Shown: piece by piece, positions 4,711 through 58,322 of the stretch
Layout of the letters: every line of letters begins with the position of its first letter
Position numbering within the stretch: the stretch's first letter is position 1
From: Thermoanaerobaculia bacterium
GTDB lineage: Bacteria; Acidobacteriota; Thermoanaerobaculia; Gp7-AA8
DNA: 64,000 nt
Direction: 5' to 3'
Assembly (NCBI GenBank): GCA_017883205.1
Contig: JADGNZ010000012.1
Coordinates: forward strand, 8,151-72,150
Made by a program: the position numbers and the translations under genes
Notes under the pieces: generated by a model
Database searches by the model: none
The model's input: only the letters and a program-made list of their open reading frames with translations
What the model was told of the DNA's origin: nothing

Positions 4711-6196
4711 GTGTCGGCTCGACCGATGGGATCGCCCGGAAGTTGACCGGCGATCCGACTCGCCGCTTCGCCACGATGCGGATCGATCCCGACGGAACCA
4801 GCAGCGGATCCGGCAGAATCCTGAACAAGGTCTGCATCACGGGCATCAGCGCCGGCCACCGCGTTGCCACGGAATGCCGCAGAAAGCGCTGGTCGCGGTA
4901 CTCGAGCTCCGCGCCGATGCTGACGATCTCGAAGCCGGAATGCTCGAGCAACTCGATGAGCGCGGAGCGCGAGTAGAGAATGAGATGCGTCCGGAAGTTC
5001 TGCGTCATCCATCGCCGCTCGGTGATGAGATAGAGCAATCCCTCGGTGTCGAACGTCGAGAGCAGTAAAACACCGCCCGGCTTCAGCAGATCCTTCATCC
5101 GCGACAACGCGTCGTGCGGATCAGCCATGTTCTCGAAGACATGAAAGAGCGCGATGGCGTCGAAGGCCGGCCCCGTATTGACGAAGTTTGGAACGGTGGA
5201 GCAATACACTTCCAGCCCGCGGGCGCGGACCGCGCGAGCAACGCTCGGAGCGCGGTCGATTCCGACATACTCAAACTCGGCTGCTGCCGCAGCGCCGAAG
5301 CTGCCATCGCGAACGCCGACTTCAAGGATCCGAGCCCGCGAGGTGAGATGCCTGCGCAACGCAGCCAGGCGCCGTTGACTCGTCCTCTCCCTTGCGACAC
5401 CGCGGTGAATCGTCTCGTCGCCAGGATCGGCAGGCGGCATCTGGCCACGCAGGACGCGGCGAACCGGACCGGCATCGTCGACGACATCGAAATGTCCAAG
5501 ATAACGGCACTTGCAACGGCTGCACGACCGCACGACGTTACCGGGGATCTGATCGATGCTCCACACTTCGCTGGAGAAACAGACCAGACAGCGCCTCGGT
5601 GGGCGATAACCATTCCTTCGATCGGTCATCCGGATCGCAGCGGCAGCGGCGAGGCCGGACCAGATATCGAACGTCGCCTTCGAAGCAGACTTCCCGCCGT
5701 GCGTGGTCAGGCACTCCACGCGGAATCCGTACTTGTTCGCGAGGTAGGCCGCTTCGAGATCGAATCCCCCTTTTCGAAGTCTGGTCTCGCCAAGTATCAG
5801 GCGCGCCGCGTCGGCGGAAAACGCCTTCAGGTGCAGCGCTCGATCAGGAAGAATCGGAACAAGAAGTGTTCGCAACAAGAGATCGCCAGGCCGCGCCTCG
5901 CGTCGCCCGAAAACCACCTCGGCTGCTCCCGATTGGATCAGCGCGACCGCATCGCCGATGGCGCTCATCGGATAAGGCAGATCATGGTCAACGATCACGA
6001 TGATGCTGCCACCTGCCTCGGCCACACCGCGCCGCAGCATGGCTCCATAACCAGCACCGTCCCGGCGGTCCAGAACGCGAATGTCGAATTCGAAGCCGGT
6101 CGCGTGCAGGTAGCTCTCGATCGCCTCCAGTGTCGATGGAAGCTCGGCGGACGGTCCAACCAGCGGAACAAGGACCGAGACTCTGGTCGAGCTCAT
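4700..6196 (-). CDS. fusion protein: GT2 glycosyltransferase domain, Cys4 zinc ribbon, SAM-dependent methyltransferase domain
   Basis: The N-terminal roughly 190 aa are GT2-like. A CxxC...CxxC cluster follows (CLVCF...CSRCKC). The C-terminal part is a class I methyltransferase (ILEVGVRDG, LKPGGVLLL). Its start overlaps the upstream stop (ATGA). Confidence 0.6.
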   Translation of the reverse strand: MSSTRVSVLVPLVGPSAELPSTLEAIESYLHATGFEFDIRVLDRRDGAGYGAMLRRGVAEAGGSIIVIVDHDLPYPMSAIGDAVALIQSGAAEVVFGRREARPGDLLLRTLLVPILPDRALHLKAFSADAARLILGETRLRKGGFDLEAAYLANKYGFRVECLTTHGGKSASKATFDIWSGLAAAAAIRMTDRRNGYRPPRRCLVCFSSEVWSIDQIPGNVVRSCSRCKCRYLGHFDVVDDAGPVRRVLRGQMPPADPGDETIHRGVARERTSQRRLAALRRHLTSRARILEVGVRDGSFGAAAAAEFEYVGIDRAPSVARAVRARGLEVYCSTVPNFVNTGPAFDAIALFHVFENMADPHDALSRMKDLLKPGGVLLLSTFDTEGLLYLITERRWMTQNFRTHLILYSRSALIELLEHSGFEIVSIGAELEYRDQRFLRHSVATRWPALMPVMQTLFRILPDPLLVPSGSIRIVAKRRVGSPVNFRAIPSVEPTHAR

Positions 6197-8545: not shown

Positions 8546-11500
8546 TTAGTGTCCGCGATTGCGCCTGTTGTCCTTGGGCGCCGCGCCGACGACCTTTACG
8601 GTCGAGGTCAGGTCGATCCCGGCCGTTCCAACCGAGACATGTGCCTTCACGTTATATGTACCGTCGGCGGTGTATCTATGCGATGGAGCCTTGTCGGTAG
8701 AGTGGCCCCCATCACCGAAGTCCCAGGAATAGGTGGGTGGCCCGCAGGTGAGGTCATAGCCGTTAGCCGCCACCACGAACACGACGTCGGCCTTCGCGGA
8801 GCAATTGCCCGATACCGCGTTGCAGCCGTCGCCGTCGAAAAAGATGTATACGTTGTCGGTAGTCATCGTGCCGCAGGCGCCGGTAGCTCCGCTATCGCCC
8901 GACCCGACGGTCAGGATACGCGTGATCGTCGTCGACGAGGTGCCGTTCGAGACCAACATCTTGACGTTGAAATTGCCCGGCCCCACGTAGGAGTGCGTTG
9001 GCTGCGCAGCGGTTGAGTGACTGGAGAGGTCGCCGAAGTCCCAGTCGTAGGTATGGATCCCGGTGCAAGTGAAGTCGTAGCCCGTACTAACAGGGTGGAA
9101 CGCGACCGCGTTCAGCGGGTTGCACGCGCCGCTGATTTCGGTACAGCTGGTGCCGGACCAGCCGAGGGAGACGTTCAGTTGCGTAAGAGTGGCGCAGGTC
9201 TTCGGCTGCACATTCCCGACTTGCACGTCCTGCGTGTACGTAAACGTGCCGCCGCTGTTGGAGACGATGGCTTGAGAGTGGTAAATGTTGGCCGAGGCAT
9301 ACGTATGCACCGGCGTAAAGCCGCTGCCGCCCGTGCCGTCACCGAAGGACCACGTGACCGTCGTAGTGCCGCAATTGAAGTTGTAGCCCGAGTCAGACGA
9401 CAGCACGAACTGCACCGCTTCACCCGGGTTACACGCGCCGGAAACCGCGGTGCAATTGGAGACGAGACCGACGTACGCCACGTACGCGCTATTGGCCTGG
9501 GGCGCAGTGCATCCGCCTCCCGAGGGGGGTCCACCTCCACCGGGGGGGCCACCTCCACCGGGGGTGGCGATGGTGACGCTGGTCGTGTAGTTGCCGGTGG
9601 AAAGCGCGCCCGTCAGCTTCAGCGTAACGGTGTATGTGTTGGCGTTAGTGTACACATGCGTCGGGAACATATCGGTCGACGTGCCGCCGTCGCCGAACGA
9701 CCACTCGAACTTGTCGCATTCAACCGAGGGCGTCCAACCGATCGGGAAGATGTGGAAGGGGACCGCGTCGCCCGGGGCGGGCGTAGAGCTGGTGAAGGGT
9801 CCGATGGCGGTGTTGAGATTGTCGGGCGCGCTCGAGCACAATGGTTTGTCAATGTGGCCGGCGAGAGTAGCGGACTTGCTGCCGATGCCGTTGGTAACGG
9901 AGACGCCGACGGTGTAGTCCGCCGTGGTCGTGAACTGCGGCTTGAAGTCGGACGCGCTCGTGCCGGAGTTGGTCGCGGTCGGGTTGACGGTCCAGGCGAA
10001 CGACCACCCGGCCAACGTCGGGTTTTGTGCCGAGGTAACAGTGAAGGAGCAAGGGCTGCCGACTGTCAGGCAGCCGGTCTTCACGATCACCGGATCCGGA
10101 CCATTCAATACGCTGCTCTGTGCAACGGCCGTGGCCAGGCTGCTGCAGCCGGCGCCAGGAACGGCCGACGCGGCGACGGTGGTCGTAAGACGTACGCGCA
10201 GTCCGAGCGTATTGAACGTGGTGCGCGGCACGCTGAACGGCGGGATTGTGCCGAGCGTGGCGGAACCGTTCGCGCTGGTGACGGTCGCCTGACTCGCATC
10301 GATCACTTCCCACTTGTAGGTCACGGCCGTACCGGTGCCGCCCGGAACATCACTCGCACTGCCGACACGGAGAGTGGTGGTGAATACTGCGTTTGGATCA
10401 CTGATGGATGCAGGTGTCGGTTCCTGAACTGTGAGGACGTACGGACGAACGGCGTAATTGAACGGAGAGATGCTCAAGGGGAGGTCGCTGGGCGCCGTGA
10501 TCGCACTACCGGTGCCGCTGTACGGGCCGTAATGTGTGTTGAAGGCGAGCGAATGCGCGCCGCAGGCGCCGGCGCCCAAGGCCTCGCTCGGCAGCTTCTT
10601 GTTCGATGCGCCGTCGAGAACCCAATCGGTGTAGTGGCCTTCGACTGCTCCGTCGGACGCATCCAGGAATGAGTCGCCGGAGACGATCGGCGCAGTCGAG
10701 CTGGCATCGGCCTGGCGGAACAGGAATGACGTATTCGCGAGCTGGAAGCGAGGCTGCGGGGAAGCGAGAGTCACCGGCACTGTGTCGGTCATCGTCAGAT
10801 CGGCCGCATTGGAGGCCGTCACCTGGCGGACCAGCGGAAGCGAGGCTGCCGACGTGACGCCGCCGTACTGATGCTTGACGGTCCCGCCGGTGACCGACGC
10901 GAGACTCGTGCTGTCGCCGAAGTCCCAATTGACGTTCGCCACATTCCCGGAGCCCAACGCGCTCGTAAACGCCTGGCGATCGCCGTAGAACGGACCGCTC
11001 CCGGGAGCCGCAGCAGAATTCGGATTGGGCACTTCAGCGGACGCGCTCAGCCGTGCGCTGAGAGAGTCGCTCGACTTGAGCTCCCACACGTCTCCCAACC
11101 CGTGGGCTGAGACGATGAGGTAGACCTTGGAGCCATTCTTGACCGGCGTAACGTCCAGGAAATCGTTGATAGTCGGATGGGTATAGCCCGCGGGCGCATT
11201 CGCCGAGTAGTACATCGACCAGAAAGGCTCTTGGCGGCTTCCGTTCCCCGGCACTGCCATCTCAAACGGGATCTCGGCCAACGTTCCCGGTCCCACTTTG
11301 TAGACGCGGATGTTCCATGTGCCGACCGGCGCAAGCTCCACTCCATAAACCGCGAGGTAGCCGTCGCCGTAATGCATTCCCTGGGGGAGGCCGTAGCCGT
11401 TTGTGCGATAGCGCGTCTCCACATACGTGTTCCCGGAGGGCGAGATCACATCGATGAAGGGGCCGGCGTTTGCCACGCCATAGGCGTAGAAGTTGGTCCC

Positions 11501-24794: not shown

Positions 24795-24814
24795 CTTTTC
24801 TCCGAGGAAGCAGA

Positions 24815-24900
24815 GATGAGAGATCAGAGATCAAAGATCAGGGTGGCGCCAACAGACTGCCCCCTGATCTCTGATCTCTAGTCTCTGATCTCTACGCCCT
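24815..24900. repeat. inverted repeat of GATCAGAGATC units in the nuoM-nuoL intergenic gap
   Basis: gagatcagagatcaaagatcagg...cctgatctctgatctctagtctctgatctc. These are the same units that form the core of the family A elements. Confidence 0.7.
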
Positions 24901-32201: not shown

Positions 32202-32945
32202 TCAGTTCTCGATCTCGTCGGCTTCGGGAGTCTCGCTGAGTGTAGTGGCGGGTTCGCTGGCGGAAGGTACGTCCGAAGCCGCCGGCGTGGCCACGGGCGC
32301 CGCAGCAGCCTTCGGTTTCTTCTCTTCGATCGGCGTCCGCTTGATGCCGGAGATCGGCGCCTGCTTCAATTGCGCCTTCGCCTGTTCCGCGCGCAACGCC
32401 GGCCCTTCGTGCACCGGGCGAATCGAATCGCGCACCGCCGCGCGCGCGAAGTCGTACGACTCGCCGCCTTTGCGGATGACGTGCATCTTCTCGATCTTCT
32501 TCTGCAGCTCCATCAGCCCCCAGATCAACGCCTCGGGGCGCGGCGGGCAACCGGGAATGTAGACGTCGACCGGGATGAGCCGGTCGACGCCCTGCGTGAC
32601 GGCGTACGTGTCATACGGACCACCGCACGTCGCGCAGGAGCCCATGGCGATCACCCATTTCGGATCGGGCATCTGATCCCAGAGGCGCCGGACGATCGGC
32701 GCCATCTTTTCGGTGACCGTGCCGGAGACGATCATCAGGTCGGCCTGGCGCGGCGTAGCGCGAAAGACTTCCGCGCCGAAGCGGGCCATGTCGTGGCGCG
32801 GATCGAGAACGGCCATCATCTCGATCGCGCAGCAAGCCAGCCCGAACTGCATCGGCCAAAGGGACGACTTGCGCGCCCAGTTGAAAAACTTGTCGACGGA
32901 GGTGGTGAGGACGTTTGGATCGAAGCGGTTTTCGATCAGACCCAT
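32202..32945 (-). CDS. nuoB: NADH-quinone oxidoreductase subunit B with Lys/Ala/Pro-rich C-terminal tail
   Basis: [10 protein letters not shown]...CATCGGPY...GCPPRPE (the N2 cluster ligands). The ATG at 32945 overlaps the nuoA 3' end by 10 nt. The track ORF to 33167 is an artefactual extension. Confidence 0.85.
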
Positions 32946-33295
32946 GAAAGAACCTTCCTCTTCCACGCGTAAACATACCCGACGATCAGGATCGCCAGGA
33001 ACACTGCCATCTCGATCGCGCCAAACCAGCCGAGCTGCTTGAATCGGATCGCCCAGGGGAAGAGGAAAACGGTCTCGACGTCGAAGACGATGAAGAGAAC
33101 GGCGATCAGGAAGTAGCGGACCGAGAAGCGGTGATCGATCGCCTCGGAGGTCGCCGGAATCCCGCATTCATATGGTTCCAGCTTGACCTTGCCGCCACCG
33201 GCGGCCCGGACGAGCGGCGTGATGATGAACAACGTCAATACCGGGAGCGAGATAACGATGAGAGCAGCCACCAGCAGTACTGAATAGTTCGCCAT
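32936..33295 (-). CDS. nuoA: NADH-quinone oxidoreductase subunit A
   Basis: ND3 family, 119 aa. Confidence 0.85.
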
Positions 33296-33360: not shown

Positions 33361-33480
33361 CGTGGGGAGTTGGGAGTAGGGTGTGGGGTGTGGGAGCGAG
33401 GAGAACCCGCACGATTGCTGGATCGGCGCACGCCGTGTGCTTCTCCTCCTACGCCCCACCCCCCACTCCCCACCCCCTTG
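33361..33480. repeat. GC-rich inverted-repeat element (GGGGTGTGGG arm ... CCCCACCCC arm), family A/B-like, without the GATC core
   Basis: gtggggagttgggagtagggtgtggggtgtgggagcgagg ... ccccaccccccactccccaccccc. It lies between the MidA-like gene stop and the nuoA start. Confidence 0.65.
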
Positions 33481-33482
33481 AC

Positions 33483-34754
33483 TCAGAACAATTTCGTCTG
33501 AAAACGCCAGCCGTCCTGGCCCATCCCGCGCTCCTGCACCAGGACGCGAATCTCGGCTCCGATCCCGTCAGGAAGAATGAGCCTCTTCGCGTCCTCGCGC
33601 GCATCGAGCAACGCGATTCCCTCCTCGGCGCTCCCGATCGCCGCCTCCCCGATCGGAGCAAGCAACGGATGCTCTGCCGCGCCTTGAGCGAGGAGAAACT
33701 TTGCCTGCATGTCGAAAAACAGCGTCGACAGACCTAGCGTCTCGCCGATGCGGATCAAGTCGTCAAAGTTGATGTGCGCCGTCAGATCCTGCTCACCCGG
33801 GTTGGCGAGCAGGTCGCGGCTGACGCGATGTCCGGAGTATGCCGCCGCCGTCCCGAAGCGCCGCATCCGTCCGCGAAAGAGCTTCGATTGCGGGAGACCA
33901 TAATCAAAGGTGACGATGAGCCCGCGCGGAACGAAACGGCAAAGCTCGTCGTAGAGCGCAGACCATTCCAGCGAAACATCGGCGAACTGTCCGGGCTCCA
34001 GCACGATGCCACGCTCGGCGAAGTACTCCTCGTACCGTCCCCCGGCTTCATGCTCGGTCCAATCGAGCGCGCCATCCCGTTCCGTCACCCATAGTTCGTG
34101 GAGATGTTCGTCCCGCTGCACGAGCCGGGCGAAGGGAAGCGCATCGAACAGCTCATTACTAATGATGAGACGCGCGTCCGCCGGCGGGATCTCGGCGAGC
34201 GAGGAAACATACGTGACACGCGGATCGGGCACGGCGCGGGCGAGGTTGCGGTCGAGACCGAAGAAGCGGGGGGTGGGGGGTGGGGGGTGGGGGGTGGGAG
34301 AGGGGGGTCTGGTCGTGCTTTGTGGCTGCCCACTACCCGAGGAGGAGGCCAATAGATCGGCTGATCGCTGATCTCCTGATCTCTGATCTCTCGTATCTCT
34401 GATCTCTGAATCTCTGATCTCTGCTTCTCCCCCCCCCCACCCCCCACTCCCCACCCCCCGCGCAAGCGCGCGAATCAGCCCGCCATCACCGCATCCGATG
34501 TCCACCACCTGAGACACCCCGTCTCCGGCGCGGCTCATGAATTCGTCGATCAGACTGCCAAGAACATCGGGAAACAGCGGGCTTAGCAGCGGCGAGGTGA
34601 TGAAATCGCCTTCTCTGCCGATCGGCGATCGAGGGCGCGCGTAGTAGCCAAACTCAGGGTGATACAGCGCCAGCTCGACGAAATCTCTGAATGGCAAGTC
34701 ACTACTACTCAGTGAGTTGCGTAACACATCGAGGAGTGATCGCTCTTCCGGCAT
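33483..34754 (-). CDS. MidA/NDUFAF7-family (DUF185) SAM-dependent methyltransferase carrying an in-frame repeat-element insertion
   Basis: HPEFGYYARPR...GDFITSPL...VVDIGCGDGGL...TFDYG are DUF185/MidA hallmarks. The ATG at 34754 (MPEERSLLDV) is the probable start. Residues of about 100 to 165 (GSGGWGGGEAEIRDSEIRDTRDQRS...PPSPTPHPPPPTP) are encoded by the family A repeat element at 34255-34452. Confidence 0.65.
   Translation of the reverse strand: MPEERSLLDVLRNSLSSSDLPFRDFVELALYHPEFGYYARPRSPIGREGDFITSPLLSPLFPDVLGSLIDEFMSRAGDGVSQVVDIGCGDGGLIRALARGVGSGGWGGGEAEIRDSEIRDTRDQRSGDQRSADLLASSSGSGQPQSTTRPPSPTPHPPPPTPRFFGLDRNLARAVPDPRVTYVSSLAEIPPADARLIISNELFDALPFARLVQRDEHLHELWVTERDGALDWTEHEAGGRYEEYFAERGIVLEPGQFADVSLEWSALYDELCRFVPRGLIVTFDYGLPQSKLFRGRMRRFGTAAAYSGHRVSRDLLANPGEQDLTAHINFDDLIRIGETLGLSTLFFDMQAKFLLAQGAAEHPLLAPIGEAAIGSAEEGIALLDAREDAKRLILPDGIGAEIRVLVQERGMGQDGWRFQTKLF
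34255..34452. mobile_element. family A palindromic element (G-rich arm, GATCTCTGATCTC tandem core, C-rich arm) inserted in-frame within a coding sequence
   Basis: ggggggtggggggtggggggtggg ... gatctcctgatctctgatctctcgtatctctgatctctgaatctctgatctctg ... ccccccccaccccccactccccaccccc. The same architecture occurs intergenically at 45833-46055. Confidence 0.7.
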
Positions 34755-34777
34755 TAACCCGAATCGTACACCGTGGC

Positions 34778-34878
34778 GGAAGGGGTCAGGTCGAACCGCA
34801 ACTGACGAAAGAGGGTCCCGGCTAATGCGACAGACGAATTTCGTCAGTTTCGGTTTCGACCTGACCCCTTCCGCCCAT
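34778..34878. repeat. long hairpin element, family F (GGGGTCAGGTCGAAAC stem)
   Basis: ggaaggggtcaggtcgaaccg ... cggtttcgacctgaccccttcc. It sits in the divergent gap between the MidA-like gene and ompA. A related hairpin is at 54338-54450. Confidence 0.7.
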
Positions 34879-34931
34879 GGCACCTCCGTTGCGATATCAG
34901 GGGCAACAACGAAGTATCCAGGGGAGGAACC

Positions 34932-35582
34932 ATGAAAAAGCTCATCTCAGCAACGCTAACAATGCTTCTGCTCGCTACTCCGATCTTCGCGCAGACCGTT
35001 GACGATCACGCAAAAGCCAAGAAGGGCGCGATCATCGGAGCGATTGCGGGCGCGCTCGCCGGAGGCGTCATCAGCAACAACCGCAACGGCCACAGCGGCC
35101 AGCGCGGAGCCATCGTCGGCACGCTCGCCGGGACGGCAGCGGGTGCGATCGTCGGAGCGATGATGGATAAGCAGGAACGCCAGCTTCGTCAGGTCAGCGG
35201 CGTCGCCGTAACCCGTACGGCAGACAACGAGTTGAAGGTCACCGTGAAAAACGACGTGCTCTTCGACTACAACTCGGCAGGCCTGCGTCCAGCATCGCGC
35301 GAATCGCTTCGCGAGATGGCGGATGTCTTCGAGCAGTATCCGGACACGACCATCGCCGTGCTGGGGTTCACCGACTCGACCGGCTCCGCGTCGTACAACG
35401 AGCGTCTTTCCGAGCGCCGGGCCGGGTCCGTCGCCGGCTACATCGAATCCCTCGGCGTGAGAGGTTCGCGCATCGACACGATCGGCTACGGCGAATCGTA
35501 CCCGAGGGCAACGAATGACACGCCCACCGGCCGCCAGCTCAACCGCCGCGTGGAGATCCGCATCCGGGCCAATCAAGCCTAG
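34932..35582 (+). CDS. OmpA-family protein with N-terminal glycine-zipper
   Basis: Signal peptide and a Gly-zipper (GAIIGAIAGALAGG). The C-terminal OmpA domain shows NERLSERRAGSV...RRVEI. Confidence 0.8.
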   Translation: MKKLISATLTMLLLATPIFAQTVDDHAKAKKGAIIGAIAGALAGGVISNNRNGHSGQRGAIVGTLAGTAAGAIVGAMMDKQERQLRQVSGVAVTRTADNELKVTVKNDVLFDYNSAGLRPASRESLREMADVFEQYPDTTIAVLGFTDSTGSASYNERLSERRAGSVAGYIESLGVRGSRIDTIGYGESYPRATNDTPTGRQLNRRVEIRIRANQA

Positions 35583-35601
35583 ATTTTCATCGTCAAACCG
35601 A

Positions 35602-35632
35602 GAGGGCGCTTCGCAAGGGCGCCCTTTTTCGT
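35602..35632 (+). terminator. Rho-independent terminator after ompA-like gene
   Basis: agggcgc-ttcgcaa-gggcgccc followed by tttttcgttt. Confidence 0.7.
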
Positions 35633-35884
35633 TTGAGGAGGAGTGCGATCGCCTGGTCTAGTTTGAAGGGGAGTTGTAACAAGGCGCGGGTTGGCTACCA
35701 CGGCTACCAGCTTCGTTAACCTATTGACACATAGGTACTTAGCTCTCACACTTTACACACTTACGCCGCCACTTCACTCCCGTTCCCCGAGATCCTGTCC
35801 AACGCGGCAGGCGACCCAGACCCAGACCGGCAGTAACCCGCCATGACCTGCAAAGGTGTTAGAAAATGACGGCCAACTAGCCAC

Positions 35885-36880
35885 TACCCGGCACTCGCCG
35901 GAGACAGACGCTCCGACCCGAAGCGTCTCGCTCGTGGCAGGAGGTCGCGATCTCCACCTACGAAGTCGCAATCTCCTTCCTCGAGGTCGCAATCTCCCTC
36001 CATGAAGTCACGATCTCCTTCGTCGAGATCCCGATCTCCCTGCACGAGATGCCGATCTGCTTCCCCGAGGTTCCGATCTCCCCCGGCGAGATCGCGATCT
36101 CTCTCCACGAGATCCCAATCTCCTTCCCCGAAGTCCCGATCGCCTCCGTTCTTGTTTCGATCTCCAGGTTTGAGATCGCTATCTCCCTCTTTCTTAAACT
36201 GACCCCTCGGAGTCTCGTTTCGACCCCTCAGCTTCTCAAATGGACCCCTCCCGATCTCAAAGCGATCCCTCGGCTTCTCAAAACGACCTCGCGAAATCTC
36301 AAATCGATCTCGTTTCGAGAGATCGCGACCCCTCAGAATCTCGAAACGATCCCTCGGAATCTCAAATCGATCTCCTTCCCCGAGGTCGCGATCTCCTTCC
36401 CCGAGGTCGCGATCTCCTCCGAAGAGATCGCGATCTCCATTTTTGAGATCGCTACCCCTCTGAATCTCAAAACGACCCCTCCCAATCTCAAAACGATCCC
36501 CCCGAATCTCGTTTCGACCCCTCCCAGTCTTAAAACGACCCCCCGGAATCTCGTTTCGACCCCTCCAATTCTTAAATCGACCCCTCCCGATCTCAGAAAT
36601 TTGAGTTTTTTTCTTAAAACGACCCCTCCGAATCTCAAAGCGATCTATCGGTTTCTCAAAACGATCTCGCGAAGGGAGATAGCGATCTCTTTTTTTGAGA
36701 TCGCTACCCCTCCGAAACTCAAAACGACCCCCCGGAATCTCGTTTCGACCCCCCCATTTCTTAAATCGACCCCCCTGATTCTTGAATCGACCCCTCCGAA
36801 TCTCGTTTCGACCCCTCTGATTCTTAAAACGACCCCCCTCGATCTCAAAACGACCCCTCTGCCACGCCGCTGACGAGCCC
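35885..36880. repeat. tandem repeat array of about 1 kb made of roughly 45 degenerate 21-bp units in two sub-families (palindromic GAGATCGCGATCTCC units; AATCTCAAAACGACCCCTCC / AATCTCGTTTCGACCCCTCC units)
   Basis: The period is 21 bp with no intervening unique spacers. Open frames exist on both strands as a consequence (for example 36049..36873 encoding NLKTTPP/NLVSTPP heptads). The array is lower in GC than its surroundings. Confidence 0.8.
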
Positions 36881-37269
36881 CCGAAATGGTCCGCACGACG
36901 CGGAAGAATCTTTTTTCATCGAATAGGGAAACTTTTGACCGGGCTGATGCGTCTCAATAAACAGCCCGCTTCGTCAACGCGTGGTTGACGGGGCGATCCG
37001 GCGAGCTCGCATCATTCGTTCAACCTCGCGTCCGGCCAACCGTGACCTCAATTTTACCAATCGTTCGGAACGCTCGCGACTTGTACGCCGAGGCGGGACG
37101 CCTCGACGCCGCGGCCGAGACGCCCGCACTCCTCTACCGCGAAGCTATCCTGCCCACCCCTCCCCCTCCCCCCTCCCACCCCCCACACCCACTCCCCGTC
37201 TGTTACAATCCGCGCGCTCTGAGCGCCCGCTCAGTTGCAAACTCACTAGCAAACACGTCTGGAGGACCT

Positions 37270-39780
37270 ATGAAGTCATGGATCATGCGCACGCTGGTCC
37301 TGGCGATGCTGATCGTTTGCATCGCTGGTGTCGCGAACGCGCAGACCTCGAACACGACACAAACCGCGGCCACGACGCAGGTGGCAGCGCCTCAGCCGGG
37401 TGTGCCCGCGCCGGCGGAAACGCAGACCGAGGCCAACCTCGTGCTGCCCGATCTCGGCAGCGTCTCGTTCCTCGGCGGCATCAACGGCCGGAAACTTCTG
37501 ATGTTCGGACTGGTCGTCTGTGCTCTGGGACTGCTCTTCGGCTTCGTCATGTACGTGAAGCTGAAGAACCTAGAGGTTCACAGCTCGATGCGGGAAATCT
37601 CGGAGCTGATCTACGAGACCTGCAAGACCTATCTGCAGACGCAGGGTAAATTCATCCTGCTGCTCGAGGTCTTCATCGGCATCATCATGATCTTCTACTT
37701 CGGCGTGCTGCGCCATTACGGCCTGACGCGGACGGCGATCATCATCATCTTCAGTCTCGTCGGCATCGCCGGCAGCTACGGCGTGGCCTGGTTCGGGATC
37801 CGCGTCAACACCTTCGCCAACTCGCGCTCGGCGTTTGCCGCGCTGCGCGGCAAGCCCTTCCCGACCTACGACATCCCGCTCAAAGCCGGCATGTCGATCG
37901 GCATGCTGCTCATCTCCACCGAGCTCGTGCTGATGCTCTTCATCCTGCTCTTCGTCCCGCGCGACTACGCCGGACCTTGCTTCATCGGATTCGCCATCGG
38001 TGAGTCGCTCGGCGCGGCCGCGCTCCGCATCGCCGGCGGCATCTTCACCAAAATCGCCGACATCGGATCGGACCTCATGAAGATCGTCTTCAACATCAAG
38101 GAAGACGATGCCCGCAACCCCGGCGTCATCGCCGACTGCACTGGCGACAACGCTGGCGACTCGGTCGGCCCGACTGCCGACGGCTTCGAGACCTACGGCG
38201 TCACCGGCGTGGCGCTGATCACGTTCATCCTCCTCGCCGTCAGTGACCCGCTCGTCCAGACGCAGCTCCTGGTCTGGATCTTCGTCATGCGCGTGCTGAT
38301 GATCATCACCTCGGCCGTCTCGTACTGGATCAACGGCGCGATCGCCCGTGCAAAGTACGGCAGCGCGGACGTCATGAACTTCGAAGCGCCGCTCACCTCG
38401 CTGGTCTGGATCACTTCGATCCTCTCCGTCGGCGTGACCTACGCCGTGTCGTATGTTCTCATCCCCACGCTCGGCGGCGACGCCTCGATGTGGTGGAAGC
38501 TCTCCACGATCATCACCTGCGGCACGCTCGCCGGCGCCATCATCCCTGAGATCGTGAAAGTCTTCACGTCGATGGATTCCAGGCATGTCCAGGAAGTCGT
38601 CACCGCATCGCGCGAAGGTGGCGCCTCGCTCAACATCCTGGCCGGACTCATCGCCGGAAACTTCAGCGCGTATTGGATGGGCATCACCATCGCCGCACTC
38701 ATGGGAGTCGGCGCGTGGATCAGCAGCATGTTCCCGGTCGGTGCCGGCGCGCTCATGATCGCGCCCGCCATTTTTGCGTTCGGTCTCATCGCCTTCGGAT
38801 TCCTGGGCATGGGTCCGGTGACCATCGCCGTCGATTCGTACGGTCCCGTCACCGACAACGCGCAGTCCGTCTTCGAGCTCTCGACGATCGAGACGATGCC
38901 CGGCATCGAAGCCGAGATCAAGCGCGACTTCGGCTTCGAGCCGTCATTCGCGAAGGGCAAGGACTTCCTCGAAGCGAACGACGGTGCCGGCAACACGTTC
39001 AAAGCGACGGCCAAGCCTGTGCTCATCGGCACGGCGGTCGTCGGCGCGACGACGATGATCTTCTCCATCATCGTGATGCTCACCCACAAGCTCACGACCG
39101 ACATGGACAAGCTCTCGCTCATGCACCCGCAGTTCCTTCTCGGACTCGTCGTCGGCGGCGCGGTGATCTACTGGTTCACCGGCGCATCGACGCAGGCCGT
39201 CTCCACCGGCGCGTATCGTGCGGTCGAGTTCATCAAAAAGAACATGCACCTCGATGCCGGCGCCACGAAGGCCTCCGTCGAAGACTCGAAGAAAGTCGTC
39301 GCCATCTGCACGCAGTACGCGCAGAAGGGCATGTTCAATATCTTCCTGACCGTGTTCTTCTCGACGCTGGCCTTCGCATGCTTCGAGCCGTTCTTCTTCA
39401 TCGGCTACCTGATCTCGATCGCGCTCTTCGGTCTCTACCAGGCCATCTTCATGGCCAACGCAGGCGGGGCGTGGGACAACGCGAAGAAGATCGTCGAGGT
39501 GGAGTTGAAGGAGAAGGGAACGCCGCTCCACTCTGCCTGCGTCATCGGCGACACGGTCGGCGATCCGTTCAAGGATACGTCGTCGGTGGCCATGAATCCC
39601 GTCATCAAGTTCACGACACTCTTCGGTCTTCTGGCCGTCGAGCTGGCCGTGGAGATGACGAAGAACGGTCAGCAGGGATTGACGCGAATCCTGTCGGTAA
39701 TCTTCTTCATCATTTCGATGATTTTCGTCTACCGCTCGTTCTACGGAATGCGCATCCAGTCACAGAGCGCAGCGCACTGA
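37270..39780 (+). CDS. hppA: membrane-bound proton/sodium-translocating pyrophosphatase with N-terminal signal-like extension
   Basis: H+-PPase motifs GDTVGDPFKDTSSVAMNP and DNAGGAWDNAKK, with more than 14 TM helices. An ATG at 37270 with a GGAGG ribosome-binding site gives an N-terminal MKSWIMRTLVLAMLIVCIAGVANAQ. The track ORF start at 36985 runs through a C-rich repeat. Confidence 0.85.
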   Translation: MKSWIMRTLVLAMLIVCIAGVANAQTSNTTQTAATTQVAAPQPGVPAPAETQTEANLVLPDLGSVSFLGGINGRKLLMFGLVVCALGLLFGFVMYVKLKNLEVHSSMREISELIYETCKTYLQTQGKFILLLEVFIGIIMIFYFGVLRHYGLTRTAIIIIFSLVGIAGSYGVAWFGIRVNTFANSRSAFAALRGKPFPTYDIPLKAGMSIGMLLISTELVLMLFILLFVPRDYAGPCFIGFAIGESLGAAALRIAGGIFTKIADIGSDLMKIVFNIKEDDARNPGVIADCTGDNAGDSVGPTADGFETYGVTGVALITFILLAVSDPLVQTQLLVWIFVMRVLMIITSAVSYWINGAIARAKYGSADVMNFEAPLTSLVWITSILSVGVTYAVSYVLIPTLGGDASMWWKLSTIITCGTLAGAIIPEIVKVFTSMDSRHVQEVVTASREGGASLNILAGLIAGNFSAYWMGITIAALMGVGAWISSMFPVGAGALMIAPAIFAFGLIAFGFLGMGPVTIAVDSYGPVTDNAQSVFELSTIETMPGIEAEIKRDFGFEPSFAKGKDFLEANDGAGNTFKATAKPVLIGTAVVGATTMIFSIIVMLTHKLTTDMDKLSLMHPQFLLGLVVGGAVIYWFTGASTQAVSTGAYRAVEFIKKNMHLDAGATKASVEDSKKVVAICTQYAQKGMFNIFLTVFFSTLAFACFEPFFFIGYLISIALFGLYQAIFMANAGGAWDNAKKIVEVELKEKGTPLHSACVIGDTVGDPFKDTSSVAMNPVIKFTTLFGLLAVELAVEMTKNGQQGLTRILSVIFFIISMIFVYRSFYGMRIQSQSAAH

Positions 39781-45832: not shown

Positions 45833-46055
45833 AGGATTATAGCGGGAGTGGGGAGTGGGGAGTGGGGGGTGGGGAGTGGGGGAATCAGAGATCAGAGTCT
45901 GACGAGTCTCTCGTCTCTTGTTTCTGGTCTCTTGTTTCTGGTCTCTTGTCTCTGATCTCTCGTCCCTGATCTCTGATCTCTTGTCTCTGATCTCTTGTCT
46001 CTGATTCTCCCACCCCCCACATCCCACTCCCCACCCCCACTCCCACCCCCTGCTA
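45833..46055. repeat. family A palindromic element (GGGAGTGGGG arm, (GA)TCTCTGATCTC tandem core, CCCCACTCCC arm) in a divergent promoter region
   Basis: gggagtggggagtggggagtggggggtgggg ... gatcagagatcagag...ctcttgtctctgatctct... ... cccaccccccacatcccactccccacccccactcccaccccc. It lies between the kinase start (45818) and the yjbQ start (46067). Confidence 0.75.
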
Positions 46056-49954: not shown

Positions 49955-50355
49955 TAGTGCGCTTCGCGCGTTGTCGGTTGTCGGTTGTCGGTTGGTGCCA
50001 ACTGGCGCACAACGCAATCGACCGGCTAGCTCGCCACTCTTATCCGCAGCTCCTTCCAATCGAGCGCCTTCTCCCCCACGCTTTTTGTGGGGGAGAAGGT
50101 GGCGAAGCCGGATGAGGGGGCGTTGCAAGATGGGACAAAACAAGTTCTTTGCGAGCGTGACCCGTTTGAAAAAACGTCCGTGCCCGGTGTTTGTGCAACG
50201 TTGACGCGACAGTCAAACGCCCCCTCATCCGCCTTCGGCACCTTCTCCCCCACTGAGAAGCGTGGGGGAGAAGGCGCTCGATTGGAAAGCGCGCCAGTTG
50301 GCACTCAACAGACAACGGACAACCGACAACGGACAACCGACAACCGACAACGCGC
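49955..50355. mobile_element. second composite family D MITE-like element, nested inside an outer inverted repeat of CGTTGTCGGTTGTCGG units
   Basis: Outer inverted repeat at 49956-50000 and 50288-50355. Inner hairpins ccttctcccccacgctttttgtgggggagaagg (50060-50092) and caccttctcccccactgagaagcgtgggggagaagg (50240-50275). It carries the ggtggcgaagccggatgagggggcgttgcaag module. Confidence 0.65.
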
Positions 50356-58164: not shown

Positions 58165-58322
58165 TGCGTGATGCGGGTGTGGGGAGTCGGGAGTCGGGGG
58201 TGGGGTCGGGAGTCAGAACCACAAAGCTACGACTCCCGACCCCCGACACTACTACGACTCCCGACACTACTACGACTCCCGACGACACGACTCCCGACCC
58301 CCGACACCACTACGAATCGCGC
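58165..58322. repeat. family B palindromic element
   Basis: gtggggagtcgggagtcgggggtggggtcgggagtc ... cgactcccgacccccgacactactacgactcccgacactactacgactcccgac. Confidence 0.75.

Follow-up and report, generated by a model that had tools for sequence, protein, structure and literature searches.

The 64,000-nucleotide stretch of Thermoanaerobaculia DNA analyzed here (contig JADGNZ010000012.1, assembly GCA_017883205.1; hereafter the window) carries a tandem array of 21-bp units between an OmpA-family gene and hppA, the gene for an H+-pyrophosphatase (H+-PPase). The array is one copy of a dispersed, accessory element of ~1 kb with its own leader and trailer. The element is built from a leader, ~40 units of 21 bp whose two types follow a fixed order, and a trailer; it is present at several loci per genome, and no frame of the array is under protein-level selection. 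We regard it as probable, though by no means settled, that the array is an accessory, non-coding, modular interspersed repeat element of soil Thermoanaerobaculia, for which no host function need be invoked. An initial annotation of the window had recognized the array and proposed an iteron or partition-site-like binding array, a hypervariable minisatellite, or a repetitive surface-protein gene; membership in a dispersed family goes beyond that account.

Architecture of the array and its ends

The array consists of 44 head-to-tail units at 35941-36864, each exactly 21 bp long, in perfect register and with zero indels; the ~1-kb repeat reported between ompA and hppA is thus real. Its autocorrelation exceeds 0.36 only at lags of 21, 42, 63, and 84 (values of 0.53-0.59), with no 7-bp sub-period, and Tandem Repeats Finder (TRF) assigns periods of 21, 42, and 63. 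The units abut without spacers and the period equals the 21-bp unit length, which bears out the earlier view that this is not a CRISPR. The GC content is 54.6% in the array versus 62.0% in the whole window, in agreement with the local depression described initially.

The units fall into three classes. Class A (n = 18) is the dyad-symmetric GAGRTCSCGATCTCC followed by 6 variable bases; class B (n = 20) is the C-rich CTYAAAWCGACCCCTCC followed by 4 variable bases; and class B' (n = 6), with the sequence CTCGTTTCGACCCCTCC, brings the B and B' units to 26. A core, CGAYCYC, at unit columns 8-14 is common to all three classes, while columns 17-20, 7, and 3 are nearly free. The initial annotation described an upstream block of perfect 14-bp palindromes. 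The palindromic character of the A units stands, but the perfect palindrome GAGATCGCGATCTC is found in only 2 of 18 (at 36088 and 36424), the others being off at 1-3 positions, and A units also occupy unit positions 19, 22-25, and 36-37 rather than a single upstream block. Likewise, the B-unit centers AAAACG and GTTTCG, previously read as one motif in both orientations, are near reverse complements but not exact ones. Across the 64-kb window, the B motif has 13 matches at ≤3 mismatches (0.18 expected) and the A palindrome has 13 at ≤2 mismatches (1.4 expected), 11 of them within the array; no sequence similar to the array was found elsewhere in the window. The palindrome TCGCGA occurs 8 times inside the array and is ~2-fold under-represented outside it (36 observed versus 79 expected). 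No avoidance of GATC that would suggest a link to Dam was found (615 observed versus 512 expected), and CGATCG is likewise not avoided.

The element and its surroundings are composed of the following features, in which L numbers designate related loci:

34932-35582: OmpA-family gene, left flank
35603..35630, + strand: terminator-like hairpin of ompA (AGGGCGC…GCGCCCT, then T5), read from the sequence; left edge of the conserved synteny, conserved in L147, L156, and L161
35630..37060, no strand: variable slot from the ompA terminator to the region upstream of hppA, with the element here and other cargo in relatives
35907..35940, + strand: 5' leader of the element, GACGCTCCGACCCGAAGCGTCTCGCTCGTGGCAG; a related leader occurs in unrelated contexts
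35941..36192, + strand: A block, units 1-12, mostly GAGRTCSCGATCTCC plus 6 variable bases, defined by register and unit classes; without AA/TT helical phasing
36193..36444, + strand: mixed block, units 13-24, with B, B', and A interleaved; same type order in ~15 other copies
36403-36437: long inverted repeat inside the mixed block
36445..36864, + strand: B block, units 25-44, mostly CTYAAAWCGACCCCTCC, with two A units (36676, 36697) and one A4/T3 tract per 21 bp
36865..36932, + strand: 3' trailer, type T1, ending …ATCGAATAGGGAAAC; conserved across contexts
36927..37046, + strand: promoter/5' untranslated region (5'-UTR) remnant of a 217-aa gene, outside the element; 96% identical to L004 2144-2263
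37270-39780: H+-PPase gene (hppA), right flank

In the window, the element spans about 35907-36932 (~1.0 kb) and comprises a leader of ~34 nt, 44 units, and a trailer of ~68 nt. In L128/L130 and L141/L146, which are unrelated contexts, a related leader (…ATCTCACTCGCGGCCG) stands directly before the first unit; L134/L145/L158 have a degenerate version, and L147/L156/L148 have none. The array-derived hypothetical protein P0006 also matches window 35884-35940. The trailers that follow the last unit are of two related types, T1 and T2, ending …ATCGRAATCSGWAAC. The window trailer contains a hairpin, TCCGC/GCGGA (36890-36904), and then T6 (36911-36916), a terminator-like arrangement; RNAalifold finds no consensus pairs in 13 trailers, and a conserved trailer terminator is therefore not claimed. 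No terminal inverted repeats (TIRs) were detected: the match between the leader and the reverse-complemented trailer is at shuffle level in 6 of 8 copies (P 0.14-0.87), and the two exceptions, L126 and L139, are accounted for by a flanking hairpin. A recurrent TCA after the trailer may be part of the element or of the target sequence, the sole empty-site comparison (L161) having other cargo and the 5' end being ragged.

Dispersal and remodeling of the family

Related arrays are present on 36 metagenome contigs and in two metagenome-assembled genomes (MAGs). The 36 loci were retrieved by a metagenome scan with two adjacent B units as the probe; the search patterns and weight matrices were built from the window and favor close relatives. 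The first relative found, P0001 on GCA_038230535.1 (L001), lies between RNase D-like and TrxB-like genes and contains the same two unit types. Position-weight-matrix annotation gives a unit-type order nearly that of the window in ~15 loci (AAAAAAAAAABABBBBBBABBAAABBBBBBBBBAABBBB…), and the number of units ranges from 19 to 44 per array. In a second scan, of genome contigs, for three palindromic cores at 21-bp spacing (a pattern that any 21-bp array with the 9-mer matches thrice), the window genome and GCA_038230535.1 are not among the matches listed, which are mostly unrelated 21-bp repeats. The host of the family is Thermoanaerobaculia (Acidobacteriota), in soil. Proteins assigned to MAGs of this class include one identical to the NuoA of the window and others with which its PPase clusters.

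The copies occupy at least 13 flank contexts, and collinear arrays are 80-93% identical to that of the window in every one of them. Array identity does not track genomic context: the closest copy, L148 (93%), is in a different context, and the true orthologs L147/L156, with the order nuoA-methyltransferase-ompA-array-hppA, are 88-89% identical. The Ga0247666 metagenome supplies five different loci, two of them on one 289-kb contig (Ga0247666_1000002). The neighboring genes include those for OmpA, H+-PPase, RNase D-like, TrxB-like, Tgt, and NadE-like proteins and others. The upstream gene is co-oriented with the array in 10 of the 13 independent contexts (one-sided binomial P ~0.05), with 13-130 bp between its stop codon and the start of the array. 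Several of the sites are enclosed by convergent genes.

The slot occupied in the window is filled differently in relatives. In L161 (MAG GCA_034665065.1), the synteny nuoD-C-B-A, methyltransferase, ompA … hppA is intact and the slot contains no array; the element is therefore dispensable there. Homology to the window stops at ~35627 and restarts at ~37060, and the L161 slot holds a DUF2442 plus antitoxin-like (Unstab_antitox) pair (L161 5087-5825). A ParE_like plus small open reading frame (ORF) pair is found upstream of hppA in L162 (4841-5797). This slot, upstream of hppA, is a hot spot of accessory DNA, with the element as dispensable cargo. The array junctions of L147, L140, L126, and L139 are all different, even among close relatives; the L147 array begins 7 bp after the equivalent of window 35642, and ompA is missing from L126 and L139. 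On the hppA side, L140 has a 1.29-kb segment with a 217-aa gene (L140 349-1638) exactly at the junction corresponding to window 37046/37048. This gene (MERTKPTQ…) is also present in L003, L004, and L128 but is gone from the window, where only a 120-bp piece is left (36927-37046); the same piece follows arrays with differing upstream flanks. The break at 37046/37048 falls within a hairpin (CTCGCGTC…GACGCGAG) that precedes the ribosome-binding site (RBS) of the 217-aa gene in L003, L004, and L140. The region of this gene was also located at L004 2144-2939, and tandem ~110-bp duplications of its 5'-UTR hairpin, RBS, start, and first ~20 codons are seen at L128 4072-4325 and L003 ~370-535.

Changes within the family occur largely in whole units. 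The window and the collinear copy L004 differ by three whole-unit indels (21, 21, and 63 bp) and by two 1-bp events. Off-register unit junctions number 15 of 700 across the family, with zero in 14 of 24 arrays. Fragments of former flanks accompany some copies: L143 retains the final ~45 nt of the gene adjacent to the L148 array, and L126/L139 have a fragment equivalent to window 34771-34873. The absence of TIRs, the ragged 5' end, and the old-flank fragments that travel with copies suggest that new copies do not depend on a cut-and-paste transposase but originate through imprecise segmental copying or recombination. The element would spread as a whole, and spacers 3' of genes may tolerate copies and hence allow them to persist. 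Whole-unit exchange would then remodel the arrays, and unit-to-unit and copy-to-copy gene conversion would preserve the core CGAYCYC and the register. An effect on the host, if there is one, would probably be physical and due to the dyad symmetry of the A units and to the B block, where one A-tract per two helical turns would give curved, protein-prone DNA; alternatively, the element would act as a long 3'-UTR appendage on read-through from the upstream gene.

A locus-specific hypervariable minisatellite produced by in-place slippage, or an assembly artefact, would be consistent with the whole-unit indels that separate the copies, the higher-order 42/63-bp periods, and the contigs of several assemblies that break inside arrays. 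However, the same ~40-unit order recurs in ~15 independently assembled contigs from several samples with different flanks, and the leader and trailer accompany the array. An artefact, named at the outset as what would refute the array, would not recur across assemblers and samples. From the minisatellite proposal, the gain and loss of whole units survives; hypervariability does not, as the unit order is kept and divergence is no faster than at synonymous sites. We consider this reading contradicted and very improbable.

Two further groups of repeats were noted during the search. A sister family (L150 978-1897, L144 162-1112) has B-like units (CTTRAAACGACCCCTCAYSWWC) with mixed 21- and 22-bp periods. 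Unrelated intergenic 21-bp arrays at L033 (reverse complement, ~4960-5200) and L013 (3415-3700), and also in L087, L054, L102, and L024, contain 14-bp palindromes whose outer bases vary yet remain complementary (CAGATC..GATCTG, TAGATC..GATCTA, CTGATC..GATCAG). Two of these arrays are from Thermoanaerobaculia, and none has the leader or trailer of the window element.

Reading frames of the array

Frames +0 and -0 are both free of stops across the whole 924-bp array. The initial annotation attributed the long ORFs on both strands to a period divisible by 3, and we agree; the 274-aa ORF that it singled out exists. The two open frames are:

36049..36873, + strand: 274-aa ORF, frame +0, heptads EIAISxx / LKTTPPN, judged spurious
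35884..36915, - strand: open frame -0, heptads xxGDRDL / xxRGRFE, judged spurious

In shuffles that preserve column composition, openness of +0 has P=0.23 and openness of -0 has P=0.087; for the two together, P=0.017. The open stretch of +0 runs from 35881 to 36873, and the first start codon in it, ATG 36049, comes 5 units into the array and is not preceded by a purine-rich RBS. On the other strand, -0 extends without a stop from 36915 to 35884, with its earliest start, GTG 36108, ~270 codons in. An in-frame stop lies 9-63 nt upstream of nearly all arrays. Frame +0 is weakly the best of six by codon log-likelihood ratio (LLR), at 0.23 per codon versus 0.24-0.72 in 11 of 12 reference ORFs (the twelfth, whose frame is uncertain, scores -0.01). 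Its G+C content at third codon positions (GC3) is 0.65 versus 0.80 in genes, and all 18 of its Lys codons are AAA, whereas genes prefer AAG. Of the support sought for 36049..36873, an RBS is lacking and that from codon usage is weak. The conserved unit columns are contiguous, cross codon boundaries, and include invariant 'third' positions (columns 9 and 12).

The frames are not maintained among relatives. Frame +0 is stop-free in 9 of 23 related arrays, the remainder having 1-11 stops or ±1-bp shifts; there is no open frame in L003, L005, or the collinear copy L004, and frame -0 has stops in L001, L004, and L005. When 16 copies are aligned to the window, synonymous changes make up 0.324 of the single-nucleotide codon differences in +0 (0.283 expected) and 0.26-0.36 of them across all six frames (0.25-0.30 expected). 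The differences in these copies are distributed 441/444/514 over the three codon positions, compared with 0.03/0.013/0.185 in the flanking hppA. The ratio of nonsynonymous to synonymous change (dN/dS) is ~0.8, and no frame has an excess of synonymous change. At E<=0.01, neither open translation contains a Pfam domain. No homologue of the -0 translation exists among 5.8 billion proteins, and the +0 translation matches only a handful of short array-derived ORFs among 1.8-5.8 billion; an exhaustive phmmer search with the latter gave 56 matches, mostly unrelated heptad low-complexity ORFs, with ~8 relatives. In a separate observation, the N-terminal part of ORF P0047 resembles, by eye, the helix-turn-helix of an IS21-family transposase and runs straight into an A-type (EIxIS) array.

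We conclude that the array does not encode a protein. The repetitive surface-protein gene suggested initially, or more generally a gene for a heptad-repeat (surface or disordered) protein read from +0 or -0, could appeal to the joint openness of the two frames, the codon score of +0, the fact that +0 is open in L001 too, and an ATG at +108 that recurs in several copies. It is nevertheless contradicted: a 5' start and an RBS are lacking, about half of the copies have a disrupted frame, dN/dS is ~0.8 with no third-position excess, synonymous codons are unused at conserved positions, and the sister family has 22-bp units. The probability that we leave to it is close to negligible.

Alternative explanations and comparison with known repeats

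Several points weigh against an accessory repeat with no host function. Its mobilization lacks an obvious mechanism, since the copies have no TIRs, no clear target duplication, and no associated transposase. For the number of copies per genome there are only bounds: one contig has at least two, and assemblies of unknown purity have as many as 8 contigs with arrays. Short-read metagenome assemblies are the source of most relatives; a 0.9-kb repeat may yield chimeric joins in them, and the pairing of left and right flanks is soft evidence; the multiplicity of distinct flanks is unaffected by chimeras. Other observations hint at constraint. Per-column divergence ranges ~7-fold, from 0.03 (columns 1 and 10) to 0.24 (column 18), small indels are far rarer than substitutions, and the core motif is kept in the more distant arrays L001 and L005. 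Between the window and L147, the array differs by ~11%, below the four-fold sites of hppA (24%) and ompA (35%); those of nuoA differ by 3%. The low value for nuoA (window 32936-33295) relative to ompA and hppA suggests recent recombination. The genomes compared thus appear to be recombination mosaics, and the slower rate of the array is therefore no proof of selection.

Besides the minisatellite and protein-gene readings dismissed above, two functional explanations have to be weighed. An unlikely but serious one is a phased protein-binding array with a host function, in which a dimeric DNA-binding or nucleoid-associated protein would line one face of curved DNA, so that ~18 dyad-symmetric 14-bp sites and ~26 half-site-like B units form a centromere-, iteron-, or boundary-like nucleoprotein at several chromosomal positions. 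The strict 21-bp register corresponds to two helical turns, and the sister family, at 21/22 bp, keeps the helical and not the codon period. The AA/TT amplitude of the B block at 10.5 bp is 7.19 versus a background of 1.19±0.63 (maximum 3.31, n=593 windows), ~9.5 sd above it, and the signal is absent at 10.0 or 11.0 bp; from established A-tract knowledge, such phased tracts predict coherent intrinsic bending. The dyad symmetry of A units is reasonably kept (54 A-type units tallied), with one compensatory variant in L001 (GAGATC…GATC versus GAATC…GATTC), and the outer bases of the palindromes covary in unrelated 21-bp arrays of the same class (L033, L087, L054). Column-specific conservation centered on CGAYCYC and divergence slower than at four-fold sites point in the same direction. 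Yet gene conversion and unequal exchange could also produce the column conservation and the register, the mosaic recombination (nuoA versus ompA) undermines the argument from rates, and the absence of the element from the orthologous L161 slot makes it dispensable there. No linked binding-protein, rep, or par candidate was found in any of the 13 contexts, and collections of plasmids (72,556 plasmids), phages, and viral contigs contain no match. On these last two results, the context does not support the iteron or partition site proposed initially; the phased binding array as such stays at the low probability stated above. In a broader version, also unlikely, the array would be a 'functional satellite', whose ~40 sites exactly two helical turns apart, in A units and then in an A-tract-phased, curved B block, assemble a specific nucleoprotein at several chromosomal positions or whose ~1-kb RNA with 44 motifs titrates a regulator; it could be a chromosome-organizing, boundary, or centromere-like device.

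A role at the RNA level is quite improbable in our judgment. The element would be a repeat-rich 3'-UTR appendage of repetitive extragenic palindromic (REP) or BOX-like type that stabilizes or terminates the upstream transcript, or an independent ~1-kb non-coding RNA (ncRNA) whose 44 motifs act as a sponge for a protein or RNA. The position of the arrays shortly after co-oriented genes and the hairpin-T6 of the window trailer are consistent with such a role, and BOX elements are documented as transcribed 3' extensions (PMC3049150). Both strands also fold more stably than shuffles (z -2.6 to -4.8; minimum free energies of -293 and -423 kcal/mol), but this excess is automatic because the repeats are palindromic. 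In addition, the strong terminator of ompA itself lies upstream of the element, no promoter is common to the contexts, and the 13 trailers share no consensus structure. Strand-specific wobble is contradictory as a sign of RNA: pair 4-11 favors the + strand (14 G·T, 0 A·C) and other pairs do not, while by sequence inspection B/B' complementarity is better on the - strand, where a GGAG/GGA motif occurs in every unit. A scan of 35000-37800 against Rfam 15 returned only PhotoRC-I, at 16.5 bits versus a gathering score of 45 (E=0.53), and membership in a known Rfam family was rejected. We retain the accessory interspersed repeat as the probable explanation.

The window contains other repeats. In unit A, the heptamer AGAGATC/GATCTCT is paired head to head, and the same heptamer builds arrays of its own in the window genome (24810-24900, 34361-34423, 45885-46003) and directly 5' of the L004 array. 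At 24810-24900, in the spacer between two nuo genes, the inverted (AGAGATC)n … (GATCTCT)n could form a long hairpin in the nuo operon, and its AGAGATC heptamer is the half-site of unit A. A composite repeat at 34260-34465, inside a Methyltransf_28 gene (ORF 33483-34883, - strand), has a (GGGGGGT)n arm, a (CTGATCT)n core, and a complementary C-rich arm. The frame is intact and encodes an insert, …GGWGGGEAEIRDSEIRDTRDQRSGDQRS…PSPTPHPPPPTP…, which is 13 residues shorter in the L161 ortholog and resembles the in-frame palindromic elements of Rickettsia. A second, intergenic copy at 45842-46053 has a (GGGGAGT)n arm, a (GTCTCTG/CTGATCT)n core, and a C-rich arm, and smaller arms lie at 33379-33478. 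A lone C-rich arm upstream of hppA (37147-37200; CCCCTCC/CCCACCC) matches those at 34421-34465 and 46007-46053; in L161 it is much reduced in length. A larger composite of such G-rich/C-rich arms and the array was rejected, since 3 of 13 contexts combine the two, a frequency near background. The window also has short tandem repeats of other kinds: (CAACCGA)6.6 at 50306-50352, an 18-bp unit x3.6 at 58237-58298, and GGGGGGGCCACCTCCACC x2.3 at 9524-9564.

The 21-bp element is previously undescribed; the family is new, although its kind, "junk-like" bacterial DNA, is familiar. To our knowledge, no interspersed repeat has been described in Acidobacteriota; a narrow literature search, on tandem repeats of Thermoanaerobaculia, found none. 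With this family, the short list of interspersed repeats in bacteria gains a large element (~1 kb) that is helically phased and has a conserved architecture. It also has practical consequences. Gene callers make 50-330-aa 'hypothetical proteins' of the arrays (P0001, P0002, P0005, P0006, P0021) and assemblers break contigs inside them, so once the family is recognized, false genes can be removed from Acidobacteriota MAGs and contig ends in them explained. The element marks plastic spots, where gene-sized segments differ at the edges between close relatives and toxin-antitoxin-like genes occupy the same slot elsewhere. If the phasing and core conservation reflect binding, the array would be a rare case of satellite-like functional DNA in bacteria, and were it a functional satellite, the other 21-bp palindromic arrays of the same class (L033, L013) would be parallel versions with a different specificity.

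Several known systems resemble the element in part. Iterons and repeat centromeres, such as F sopC (12 x 43 bp with inverted repeats) and R1 parC, are direct repeats with a dyad site at whole helical-turn spacing, a feature shared by the 21-bp unit (2 x 10.5) and the 14-bp palindromes of A units; the element, in contrast, is chromosomal and multi-locus, with far more units, no adjacent rep or par gene, and no counterpart in the plasmid collection. The MIRU units of Mycobacterium (46-101 bp, few copies) often lie inside operons with a stop/start overlap. Like MIRU and other variable-number tandem repeats (VNTRs), the arrays are intergenic, oriented as the neighboring genes, variable by whole units, and open in frames that give no evidence of a functional product. 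They differ in that the array moves whole with its leader and trailer and is in frame with the upstream stop in only ~3 of 10 contexts; this is the chance level, and MIRU-like translational coupling to the upstream gene was rejected. REP sequences and their mosaic arrays (BIMEs) are 20-40-bp imperfect palindromes with a GTAG/CGTC head and a link to the RAYT transposase. They too were rejected, as the units have no tetranucleotide head; a RAYT gene was looked for at the loci in hand.

Short heptamer repeats occur in several bacteria, among them the G-rich GGGNATC-type repeats of Xanthomonas and Nostoc (PMC4692102), the TAACTGA repeats of Beggiatoaceae (PMC4679880), and the cyanobacterial STRR sequences. 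The window carries many 7-bp arrays (GGGGGGT, CTGATCT, GGGAGTG, GTCTCTG, CAACCGA), and unit A is a heptamer pair; the element itself, however, is ~1 kb long, lacks a 7-bp sub-period, and is conserved in its higher-order architecture. The 25-residue repeats called PARCELs are truly coding and occur in expressed membrane proteins; DNA dyad symmetry opens their frames on both strands, and their patchy distribution recalls that of the element (PMC2996958). A PARCEL (DUF285/TIGR02167) was rejected, as the unit is 7 codons and not 25 residues, there is no DUF285 hit, and protein-level selection is absent.

The BOX elements of Streptococcus pneumoniae and S. suis are modular, boxA-(boxB)n-boxC, lie 3' of genes, and in their large copies open ORFs on both strands (PMC3049150). 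Judged by architecture rather than by direct sequence comparison, they appear to be the closest analogue of the 21-bp element, which does not seem to be a BOX member itself. The unit is 21 bp here and 45 bp in BOX, and the element has ~40 units (~1 kb) where BOX usually has 0-8 (67-637 bp). The 21-bp element also has two unit types in a conserved order, no detected TIRs, and a ragged 5' end, and it belongs to another phylum. The organization is otherwise alike. In both, distinct 5' and 3' end modules enclose a variable number of tandem core units (19-44 here) with a length that is a multiple of 3, and ORFs on both strands are annotated as hypothetical proteins although no coding function is served. 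Both are dispersed through intergenic DNA, preferentially 3' of genes or between convergent genes.

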